In this document: positions 44,465 through 48,326 of the stretch, one piece after another | Numbering within the stretch: position 1 is the first letter of the stretch | How the letters are laid out: every line of letters starts with the position of its first letter | Assembly: GCF_003334305.1 (NCBI RefSeq) | Contig: NZ_QOWS01000003.1 | Length of the DNA stretch: 64,000 bases | Source of the DNA: Escherichia coli | Lineage (GTDB): Bacteria; Pseudomonadota; Gammaproteobacteria; Enterobacterales; Enterobacteriaceae | Strand: one strand, 5' to 3' | Notes under the pieces: model-generated | Told to the model about the DNA's origin: nothing | Database searches by the model: none | The model's input: only the letters and a program-made list of their open reading frames with translations | Position numbers and translations under genes: made by a program

Positions 44465-44686
44465 CTTTTATTCCCGATTGCGTAGTTTGGCAAAAGTAAG
44501 TGATGTAAATGTGATCTAATTAACAAACTATTTACATTTAAAGATAATAAAATATTAAATATCAGCAAGTTAACAAAACATGCTCAATTTTGATAAAATG
44601 AAGAATTGCAGGGGCAGCGCAGTCCCGGTAACGTGATGATTAACTGTTTCTATATTAATGATTTTGAATTTTTCAGGGGAAAGATA

Positions 44687-45133
44687 ATGCACGACTCTCT
44701 AACCATTGCGTTGCTCCAGGCGCGAGAAGCGGCGATGAGTTATTTTCGCCCAATCGTTAAACGGCATAATTTGACTGAGCAACAGTGGCGCATCGTGCGT
44801 ATTCTGGCGGAAAGCCCATCAATGGATTTTCACGATCTGGCGTATCGCGCCTGCATTTTGCGCCCAAGCCTGACCGGGATCCTTACGCGGATGGAACGCG
44901 ACGGTTTAGTGTTGCGATTAAAGCCGATCAATGATCAGCGGAAGCTCTATATCTCGCTAACCAAAGAGGGGCAGGCGCTGTATAACCGCGCTCAGACACA
45001 GATTGAAGAAGCCTATCGGCAGATTGAAGCTCAGTTTACTGCCGAGAAAATGCAACAGTTAACCCATCTGTTAGAGGAATTTATTGCTCTGGGCAATTCC
45101 CGACAAGAAGACATCCCGGGCGATAATGAATAA
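44687..45133 (+). CDS. hpaR: MarR-family repressor of the hpa meta-cleavage operon
   Basis: 148 aa from MHDSLTIALLQAREAAMSYF; winged-helix MarR-like; divergent from hpaG. Confidence 0.85.
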   Translation: MHDSLTIALLQAREAAMSYFRPIVKRHNLTEQQWRIVRILAESPSMDFHDLAYRACILRPSLTGILTRMERDGLVLRLKPINDQRKLYISLTKEGQALYNRAQTQIEEAYRQIEAQFTAEKMQQLTHLLEEFIALGNSRQEDIPGDNE

Positions 45134-45251: not shown

Positions 45252-46916
45252 ATGTTAAAACGTATCAAGATCGTGACCAGCTTACTGCTGGTTTTGGCTG
45301 TTTTTGGCCTTTTACAACTGACATCAGGCGGTCTGTTCTTTAATGCCTTAAAGAATGACAAAGAAAATTTCACTGTTTTACAAACCATTCGCCAGCAGCA
45401 ATCCACGCTGAATGGCAGCTGGGTCGCGTTGTTGCAGACGCGTAACACCCTCAACCGCGCGGGTATCCGCTACATGATGGATCAGAATAATATTGGTAGC
45501 GGTTCAACCGTTGCTGAGCTGATGCAGAGTGCCAGTATTTCGCTGAAACAGGCGGAAAAAAACTGGGCGGATTACGAAGCGTTGCCGCGTGACCCGCGTC
45601 AGAGCACCGCCGCAGCGGCAGAGATCAAACGTAATTACGATATTTATCACAATGCGCTGGCGGAGCTGATCCAACTATTAGGGGCAGGCAAAATCAACGA
45701 GTTCTTTGATCAGCCGACCCAGGGATATCAGGACGGTTTCGAGAAGCAGTATGTGGCTTACATGGAGCAAAACGATCGGCTCTATGATATCGCCGTCAGC
45801 GATAACAATGCCTCCTACAGCCAGGCTATGTGGATTCTGGTGGGCGTGATGATCGTCGTACTGGCGGTCATCTTCGCCGTCTGGTTCGGTATTAAAGCCT
45901 CGCTGGTAGCGCCAATGAATCGCCTGATTGACAGCATTCGTCATATTGCAGGCGGCGATCTGGTGAAACCGATTGAGGTGGATGGCTCTAATGAGATGGG
46001 GCAACTGGCAGAGAGTTTGCGCCATATGCAGGGAGAGCTGATGCGTACCGTCGGTGATGTGCGCAACGGGGCCAATGCCATCTATAGCGGTGCCAGCGAA
46101 ATCGCCACCGGCAATAACGATCTCTCTTCGCGCACCGAGCAACAGGCCGCTTCGCTGGAAGAGACGGCAGCCAGCATGGAGCAACTGACCGCAACGGTGA
46201 AGCAGAACGCCGAAAATGCGCGCCAGGCCAGCCATCTGGCGTTAAGTGCTTCTGAAACGGCGCAACGCGGCGGCAAAGTGGTGGATAACGTGGTGCAGAC
46301 TATGCGCGATATCTCCACCAGTTCGCAGAAAATCGCCGATATTATCAGCGTAATTGACGGCATTGCCTTCCAGACCAATATTCTGGCTTTGAACGCGGCG
46401 GTTGAGGCTGCGCGTGCGGGTGAGCAAGGGCGCGGTTTTGCGGTGGTTGCGGGAGAAGTGCGTAATCTGGCCCAGCGTAGCGCCCAGGCGGCTCGTGAAA
46501 TTAAAAGCCTGATTGAAGACTCGGTGGGGAAAGTGGATGTTGGCTCTACGCTGGTCGAAAGCGCCGGGGAAACAATGGCGGAGATTGTCAGTGCTGTGAC
46601 CCGCGTGACGGACATTATGGGCGAAATAGCTTCTGCTTCTGATGAGCAGAGCCGTGGTATCGATCAGGTTGGCTTAGCGGTTGCTGAGATGGACCGGGTA
46701 ACTCAACAGAACGCCGCGCTGGTGGAAGAATCTGCCGCCGCCGCCGCCGCGCTGGAAGAGCAGGCCAGTCGCCTGACCGAAGCTGTGGCAGTGTTCCGGA
46801 TTCAGCAACAGCAGCAACAGCAGCGTGAAACATCGGCTGTGGTAAAAACCGTGACGCCAGCTACGCCGCGTAAAATGGCAGTGGCAGATAGCGGGGAGAA
46901 CTGGGAAACGTTTTAA
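45252..46916 (+). CDS. tsr: Methyl-accepting chemotaxis protein I (serine chemoreceptor)
   Basis: 554-aa ORF; two TM segments, HAMP, methylation helices, C-terminal NWETF pentapeptide; recognised Tsr. Confidence 0.9.
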
Positions 46917-46927
46917 TCGCCATAAAA

Positions 46928-46957
46928 ATGCCCGATAAGCAAAATGTTATCGGGCAT
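46928..46957. terminator. Bidirectional stem-loop terminator between tsr and lgoT
   Basis: atgcccgataa-gcaaaatg-ttatcgggcat hairpin; followed by a T-run in the lgoT sense. Confidence 0.6.
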
Positions 46958-46964
46958 AGGGAGA

Positions 46965-48326
46965 TTAATCTTTACGTGGGTCGTTGATCGGCTGACGAAC
47001 CAGGAAGATGTACGCCAGTGCCCCCGCTGCGGTGACGCAACCGCAGATGATTAGTGCCAGACGGAATGAGTGGGTGGTATCAACAATAAAACCAGTAATG
47101 ATCGGCGCAAAAGAGGCGCAGATGAAGCTGGCAAAGTTCTGGATACTGCCCACCGACGCAGTCATGCGAGAAGCAACTGCGACGTGGATCAAGCCCCAGC
47201 AGGATGTTCCGGCAAAGTGAATACAGAACAGTGCCATGCCAATCAGCAGAACCGCTGTCATGGATGTTGTCGCTTGCGGTACGACCAGCGTAAAGGCGGC
47301 AGAACAGAACATCCCGGCAATAATGCAGATCTTACGGCTTTTAATCGGAGCCATTCCCCCTTTGACCAGCCAGTCAGTAACGTAACCGTTGACCAGCATC
47401 CCGGCAGCCCCAAACAGGAAAGGGATAGCCGCCATCAACCCTGTGCTTTTTAAATCCAGGTTATAGGCTGTTTGCAGGTAACCAGGAAGCCAGGCCAGAT
47501 ACAGCCACGCAGTGTAGTTGATGCCACTGAATCCGAGCATCATTCCCCACATTGTGCGGTTACGGAACAGGCTGCGCCATTCGGCAAAACTGAGCGGATC
47601 TCGGCGGGCATTGACGCTACCTGCATTGAGATAAGCTTGTTCAACGGCAGTCAGTTCTACGTGCTCGCGGTTGCGATAGAGCATATACCAGCCAATGGCG
47701 AGAAAAATCCCCAGCACACCAATGGTAATAAACATCCCACGCCAGCCCATCACCAGCATCATCGCCGCCAGAATCGGTGGGCTTACGGCAACGCCAATGG
47801 TAGAAGCTGCGTTGAAGAAGCCCATCGGGCGTCCGCGCTCTTTGATGTTGAACCAGTCGTTAATGACTTTTACGCCACATGGGTTCATCGGCGCTTCACC
47901 AATCCCCATACCGATACGCACCAACACGAACTGCGTAAAGCTGTGCACCATGCCAGACATGGCCTGGAACAGTGACCAGAAGAACATCCCCAGTCCCAGC
48001 ATCAGGCGTGGGCCTTTACGATCCAATAGTGGGCCGCAAGGAAGTTGCGCAATCCCGTAAGCGAGTGAAAACACGGAGAGCAAAGCGCCGATTTCGGTGG
48101 CACTTAATCCCAATTCTTCACGAATCGTTAAATTTGCTACCGACAGCGAACTGCGGTCGAGATAATTGATTACCGCCGCAAAAAATAATAACAACATGGC
48201 GGTGGTTTGAATGCGTTTAATTCGGGTACTGCGTTGAACTAATCCATCTGGTGGCACGGGAATATCTGCCGACGAAGATGGAGTAAATGAAGAACGCGGA
48301 TCGAGGGTGATATTTTCTTTTTCCAC
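46965..48326 (-). CDS. lgoT: L-galactonate MFS transporter
   Basis: 453-aa polytopic ORF; recognised LgoT (YjjL). Confidence 0.85.
   Translation of the reverse strand: MEKENITLDPRSSFTPSSSADIPVPPDGLVQRSTRIKRIQTTAMLLLFFAAVINYLDRSSLSVANLTIREELGLSATEIGALLSVFSLAYGIAQLPCGPLLDRKGPRLMLGLGMFFWSLFQAMSGMVHSFTQFVLVRIGMGIGEAPMNPCGVKVINDWFNIKERGRPMGFFNAASTIGVAVSPPILAAMMLVMGWRGMFITIGVLGIFLAIGWYMLYRNREHVELTAVEQAYLNAGSVNARRDPLSFAEWRSLFRNRTMWGMMLGFSGINYTAWLYLAWLPGYLQTAYNLDLKSTGLMAAIPFLFGAAGMLVNGYVTDWLVKGGMAPIKSRKICIIAGMFCSAAFTLVVPQATTSMTAVLLIGMALFCIHFAGTSCWGLIHVAVASRMTASVGSIQNFASFICASFAPIITGFIVDTTHSFRLALIICGCVTAAGALAYIFLVRQPINDPRKD

Follow-up and report, generated by a model that had tools for sequence, protein, structure and literature searches.

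Where the C-terminal tether of the Escherichia coli serine chemoreceptor Tsr begins, the protein carries a run of glutamines, and in the stretch of DNA analyzed here (64,000 nucleotides of contig NZ_QOWS01000003.1, referred to as the window) this run was seven residues long. The original prediction had taken it for a trinucleotide-repeat length variant of a shorter K-12 run, which could tune adaptation kinetics by changing the length of the tether. The locus raised the questions of what unit is repeated in the tract, which of its lengths is the ordinary one in the species and which the derived one, and whether the difference matters to the receptor.

The tsr gene of the window and the unit of its glutamine tract

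The features of the window on which the analysis rested were as follows.

45252-46916, + strand: tsr coding sequence (serine chemoreceptor, methyl-accepting chemotaxis protein I), an open reading frame of 554 aa plus stop
46800-46898, + strand: C-terminal linker (tether), Ile517-Glu549, 33 residues, computed with the start at I517 taken from PMC10561060
46803-46823, + strand: Gln518-Gln524 tract, CAG(CAACAGCAG)x2, the polymorphic element, a perfect 9-bp tandem repeat according to Tandem Repeats Finder (TRF)
46899-46913, + strand: NWETF pentapeptide, N550-F554, from the translation of the open reading frame
46928-46957, no strand assigned: inverted repeat in the interval that separates the convergent genes tsr and lgoT, with a stem of 11 pairs (scored on the - strand)

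DNA 100% identical to the open reading frame carries the tsr annotation in RefSeq genomes, as did all 40 matches listed for the 3' end of the gene. Proteins 100% identical to the window Tsr over its full length (P0001-P0013) had the precomputed Pfam domains PF02203, PF00672 and PF00015, and the TarH ligand-binding, HAMP and MCP signalling domains thus stood in the order expected of a Tsr orthologue. The translation ended in NWETF, a C-terminal pentapeptide of the xZxxZ type. The 3' end of tsr was matched in 5,383 of 5,426 complete E. coli genomes; the lack of a match in the other 43 pointed to deletion or disruption of the gene in ~0.8% of them. The 12 kb around the gene, with hpa genes, tsr, lgoT and opgB, was found at ~100% identity and full length in at least eight complete E. 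coli genomes, including strain A7. Among the loci compared (L001-L004 and L083-L098), tsr was located at a variable junction with differing neighbours (window ~44606-45133 and 46965-48326). Downstream lay the MFS transporter gene lgoT in the window, K-12, O157, HS and ST131, and a TRAP transporter permease gene in NRG857C, 03_3503, RM14723 and S87. Upstream, hpaR was found in the window, W, 042 and HS and was absent from the K-12-like locus. The hairpin ATGCCCGATAA...TTATCGGGCAT at 46928-46957, outside the polymorphism, was flanked by T-runs on either side and resembles a bidirectional terminator shared by the two genes.

The seven glutamines were located exactly at 46803-46823, as residues 518-524 of a 554-residue Tsr ending in NWETF, just as predicted, and positions 46800-46826 read att CAG CAA CAG CAG CAA CAG CAG cgt. 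Glutamine accounted for 43 of the 554 residues, and 200,000 shuffles of the window protein yielded no run of seven or more, so that the run is not a product of chance composition. In TRF the tract came out as a repeat of period 9, CAGCAACAG x 2.4, at 100% matches and a score of 44; at period 3 the same tract gave 78% matches and a score of 30. Perfect 9-bp units placed head to tail were also confirmed in the tract of strain RM14723 (period 9, 100% matches, 4.4 copies). The longest pure CAG run in the window tract was two codons, since the CAA at every third codon breaks the run. The term "trinucleotide repeat" was therefore right only in a loose sense: the unit is 9 bp, the lengths change in steps of three codons, and a period of 3 fits at only 78%.

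Gain or loss of one codon at the CAGCAG pairs was searched for in the 5,426 complete E. coli genomes using three single-codon probes, which covered most simple triplet-slippage products (in alleles of seven or more Gln, the loss of a CAG from the final pair lay outside their coverage), and none was found. The only two near-matches to these probes were 7Q alleles (seven Gln) with a synonymous CAG-to-CAA change. Tsr proteins of 553 and 555 aa were present in the protein database, and their differences were located elsewhere than in the Gln tract. Slippage of a true triplet repeat was rejected on the basis of the CAA interruptions, the 78% match at period 3 and the lack of one-codon alleles among the slippage products that these probes cover.

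A true triplet repeat was present elsewhere in the gene. GCC x 5.7 at 46734-46750 encoded Ala495-Ala500, which belong to the C-terminal methylation helix and are flanked by VEE(493) and LEE(502). The length of this repeat varied: five Ala were found in P0048 (553 aa) and four in strain 74-2 (L085, 549 aa). A change of one or two residues in a helix between methylation sites should have a larger effect than a change in the Gln tract. In strain 3PT (L004), 33 bp equivalent to window 46712-46744 had been lost in frame between direct repeats CGCCGCGCTGG, and with them 11 residues including the E493 region; the 543-aa Tsr that results is probably impaired or changed in its function. Two other E. 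coli Tsr proteins contained internal tandem duplications, of 16 residues in HAMP (P0014, 570 aa) and of 14 residues in methylation helix 1 (P0078, 568 aa).

Allele lengths, their frequencies and their recurrence

Twenty-two tsr alleles, from strains chosen to include rare alleles, were read over their whole length. Twenty were pure repeats or one-substitution derivatives, and 19 were exactly CAG(CAACAGCAG)n with n from 1 to 4, which gives 4, 7, 10 or 13 Gln, the lengths differing by whole units.

n = 1 (4Q): K-12-like, 042, CT01, S87, 74-2
n = 2 (7Q): window, O157:H7, W, ST131, Nissle, 03_3503, 3PT
n = 3 (10Q): NRG857C, HS, MP1, ET350
n = 4 (13Q): RM14723, A13, Z1323HEC0355

Strain 2014C-3338 (L097) carried the n = 3 form with one G-to-T change, from CAG to CAT (His), at codon 9 of 10, and in PS10-3 (L099) codon 4 of a 7Q tract had changed synonymously from CAG to CAA. 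The run in K-12 was indeed shorter, as the original prediction had stated: the K-12-type locus (L001, NZ_CP062243) read CAG CAA CAG CAG, four Gln in a protein of 551 aa, in agreement with PDB 6S1K. Seven glutamines in K-12, or a tract invariant among strains, would have refuted the original prediction; K-12 has four, the lengths vary among strains, and the prediction was refuted on neither count.

To estimate how common each length is, allele probes with flanks of 40-60 nt were used, for which BLAST must bridge a 9-nt gap, so that identity bands separate the alleles. The short-flank probes and the totals of the 10Q probe were left unused because half-matches of other alleles were merged into one full-coverage place, and the ≥95% bands of some longer-flank and 10Q probe runs, which were contaminated by joined pieces, were left unused as well. 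The 7Q probe with 40-nt flanks matched 4,060 of the 5,383 genomes at ≥95% identity and the other 1,323 below. With the 13Q probe, 72 genomes fell into the 90-95% band expected for 10Q, exactly three 13Q genomes appeared in the ranked matches, and no 16Q allele was seen in the ranked 13Q-probe matches of complete E. coli genomes. The estimates among the 5,383 genomes, which rest on BLAST identity bands and not on extracted sequences, were ~4,057 for 7Q (75%), ~1,251 for 4Q (23%), ~72 for 10Q (1.3%) and 3 for 13Q, in a collection that is clonally biased and owes many of its 4Q genomes to laboratory derivatives of K-12 or B. Samples taken at even intervals from the match rankings agreed with these frequencies. 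The view of the window as a "length variant" did not hold, because 7Q is the major allele with ~75% of the 5,383 genomes. Identical 7Q DNA in thousands of independent complete genomes, the ~100% identity of the surrounding 12 kb to at least eight of them, and the 7Q tail in PDB 3ZX6 also refuted an error of sequencing or assembly, or an allele restricted to the window genome, a reading with practically no chance of being correct.

A perfect coding tandem repeat whose copy number differs between strains might also be a hypermutable, phase-variable contingency locus by which Tsr function is toggled. The 9-bp unit, however, always stays in frame, all 22 alleles read encoded a full-length protein ending in NWETF, and 1.3-4.3 copies are far below typical phase-variable tracts. 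In addition, two length classes accounted for ~98% of the genomes, a sign that the tract mutates slowly. This reading was effectively refuted by the in-frame unit and the full-length products, and its probability is very small.

The same lengths were found on several tsr backgrounds. The downstream haplotype ..ATPRKMAMADSEE (..AMADSEE) occurred with 4Q (S87), 10Q (NRG857C, MP1) and 13Q (RM14723, A13, Z1323HEC0355), the K-12-like haplotype with 4Q (K-12, 042, CT01) and 10Q (HS), the window-like haplotype with 7Q and 10Q (ET350), and the haplotype ..VAPRKMVVADSGE with 4Q (74-2). Both 4Q and 10Q were thus present on at least three downstream haplotypes each. In a tree computed from tsr by neighbour joining after masking of the tract, the lengths were intermingled within clades; the strains of the tree were picked for rare alleles, and it is therefore uninformative on rates. 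The occurrence of the same lengths on several backgrounds fits repeated slippage of the 9-bp units or their unequal exchange. It is well established that short direct repeats give rise to deletions and duplications without RecA. Intragenic recombination of tsr could be the source of part of the apparent recurrence.

In-frame coding repeats of the VNTR type that are used for MLVA typing in enterobacteria have short perfect units, alleles differing by whole units and recurrence across lineages. The tsr repeat differs from such loci in its very low copy number (1-4) and in that two alleles make up ~98% of the genomes. An E. coli MLVA scheme using tsr was not found in a literature search, in which the matches to tsr and VNTR were TS reagent and TSR primers instead of the gene; nor was a description of a Gln-length polymorphism of Tsr found. 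Taken as a whole, the tract is very probably the two-unit allele of an in-frame repeat, CAG(CAACAGCAG)n, with which the presumably disordered Tsr tether starts, generated by slippage or unequal exchange and near-neutral.

Probable ancestral length and proposed history of the tract

Since a full-length protein search returned only near-identical E. coli clusters, outgroups were obtained from a contig scan. The Tsr orthologues fetched from other genera were 553-564 aa long. Among the matches listed, from a sample without Salmonella, E. albertii and E. fergusonii, the 22 orthologues from other genera had linkers of 32-43 residues, and none was as short as the 30 residues of K-12. The 12 orthologues with 79-87% identity to the window protein mostly had a linker of 32-34 residues, seven of them of 33; the 33-residue linkers included those of Leclercia, Enterobacter cloacae, E. 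asburiae, Citrobacter sp. FP75, Kluyvera and Superficieibacter. These linkers started with IQQ[DE]QQKAR, IQHDQQRAR or a similar sequence, which is Q-rich and not homopolymeric. Interrupted tracts were also found in 554-aa Escherichia proteins. Strain E66 (L006/L098) carried CAG CAA GAG CAG CAA CGC CAG (QQEQQRQ) and SCPM-O-B-8794 (L035) QQAQQRQ, both in genes with many substitutions in the tail, and these alleles probably represent a deep Escherichia lineage or recombination imports.

The linker lengths of the outgroups and the interrupted 554-aa Escherichia alleles argue that a length of seven residues is ancestral and that the 4Q form of K-12 is derived. From these somewhat more distant relatives, together with the two divergent Escherichia alleles, we infer that 7Q retains the ancestral length and that K-12 4Q arose by deletion of one unit. 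The idea that the window deviates from a K-12 norm was therefore turned around, because the window shares its length with the outgroups and the interrupted Escherichia alleles, and the K-12 4Q allele is a minority form, very probably a derived one.

In the history we propose, the ancestral tract would have been an imperfect Q-rich heptad, QQ[E/D/A]QQ[R/K]Q. Two substitutions in mainstream E. coli, GAG to CAG and CGC to CAG, would have converted it into a perfect 9-bp repeat. Whole units would then have been gained or lost by replication slippage or by unequal exchange between overlapping 12-bp direct repeats, to produce the alleles with 4, 7, 10 and 13 Gln and tethers of 30, 33, 36 and 39 residues. 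The window would carry the majority allele of ancestral length, and K-12 would have lost one unit later. Both the mechanism and the direction of change in this scheme are inferred. The Gln-length polymorphism itself is most likely neutral or nearly so; the sharp peak at the ancestral 33 residues and the rarity of longer alleles could reflect stabilising selection instead of neutrality.

Tether length and its meaning for chemotaxis

The tract was located right after R516/I517, where the tether begins, and the original prediction had correctly assigned it to the linker that leads to NWETF. The alleles gave tethers of 30 (K-12), 33 (7Q, window), 36 (10Q) and 39 (13Q) residues. At the other end of the tether, N550, E552, T553 and F554 were invariant and W551 nearly so across 26 aligned sequences, of which 25 were Tsr alleles or orthologues and one was a paralogue from E. 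coli. The role of this pentapeptide as the docking tail for CheR and CheB-P, and an influence of tether length on methylation, are known from the literature on Tar and Tsr of K-12 (PMC7390727, PMC10561060). The length of 33 residues fits the linker of ~30-40 residues of pentapeptide-tethered chemoreceptors. In an AlphaFold2 monomer of the window Tsr, the pTM was 0.35 and the pLDDT was below 50 at residues 513-554, a value compatible with disorder, but a helix was drawn to residue 527; the Gln tract may, on this model, extend the last helix instead of forming a free chain, which would change the estimate of length per residue. In the cryo-ET-based Tsr model PDB 8C5V, the chain stops at residue 516, just before the tract.

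K-12 Tsr (551 aa, PDB 6S1K) and the window Tsr are products of the same gene, with the same domain order, the same flanks of the tract and the same NWETF end. The masked coding sequences differed at 22 nucleotide positions and the tails at two residues, and K-12 has one unit, four Gln and a tether of 30 residues where the window has two units, seven Gln and 33 residues. The last 77 residues of PDB 3ZX6, seven Gln included, were identical to those of the window, although 3ZX6 is an engineered chimera (Af1503 HAMP-Tsr). The template of that chimera carried the 7Q tail, and PDB 6S1K has the K-12 4Q sequence.

The closest experimental parallel is the linker of Tar, which has a similar length (~30-35 residues in both receptors), is described as unstructured, presents NWETF to CheR and CheB, and sets their reach by its length. 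It differs from the Tsr linker in its sequence, which lacks a repeat, and in that its lengths of 22-46 residues were engineered (PMC10561060), whereas the Tsr lengths are natural and change in three-residue steps at the helix-proximal end. With Tar tethers of 22, 29, 34 and 46 residues, the most probable position of tethered CheR shifted by 0.128 ± 0.048 nm per residue (PMC10561060). Each repeat unit adds ~1.1 nm of contour length. By the Tar measure, one unit would correspond to ~0.4 nm of CheR reach, a small effect, and the nine residues between 4Q and 13Q would correspond to ~1.15 nm, roughly one methylation-site spacing.

These values bear on the proposal that selection, diversifying or lineage-specific, acts on tether length through the reach that it gives to docked CheR and CheB on the methylation helices. 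On that proposal 4, 7, 10 and 13 Gln would confer differing kinetics or precision of serine adaptation according to niche. In Tar, tether length did measurably change where tethered CheR lies and how precise adaptation is (PMC10561060), the full range from 4Q to 13Q would span roughly one inter-site spacing, equal lengths recur on different haplotypes, and the 30-residue linker of K-12 lies below that of every orthologue among the matches listed. The reach, however, would change by only ~0.4 nm per unit, and Tar receptors with 5 fewer to 12 more tether residues still worked and were measurable by FRET (PMC10561060). Linkers of 29-39 residues occur together in one Pectobacterium strain, with linker sequences otherwise unconserved (bioRxiv 10.1101/2024.03.07.583918). 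The host and source labels of the genomes listed revealed no obvious link to niche, those of 10Q strains ranging over human, mouse, dog, horse, soil and water, and a slippage-prone repeat alone would yield recurrence without selection. Selection of this kind on the reach of the enzymes is unlikely, and differing adaptation of the four alleles by niche is just as doubtful. A Tsr tether acting as a "quantised" length dial (30, 33, 36 and 39 residues), reset by recurrent 9-bp slippage to adjust serine adaptation, is likewise improbable; if it were true, K-12, the basis of nearly all quantitative models of chemotaxis, would sit at the extreme short end of the dial.

The 7Q form of the window is ordinary, already catalogued thousands of times, and is a case of routine allelic variation. 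The importance of the finding is small, since what the window carries is the usual E. coli version of a receptor that has been studied in depth. Its consequence concerns the reference strain. The tether of K-12 Tsr, given as 30 residues starting at I517 (PMC10561060), is shorter than that of about three-quarters of E. coli genomes and of all 22 orthologues listed. Arguments that start from this tether therefore do not hold in general. The same study explained a Tsr tether shorter than the 34 residues of Tar by methylation sites that lie nearer to the tethering point; with 33 residues in most E. coli against 34 in Tar, this rationale for the difference in length between the two receptors is undercut. 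Quantitative models of chemotaxis that are based on K-12 rest on an atypically short Tsr tether, and the natural series of 30, 33, 36 and 39 residues would provide ready-made alleles with which to test models of tethered enzymes.
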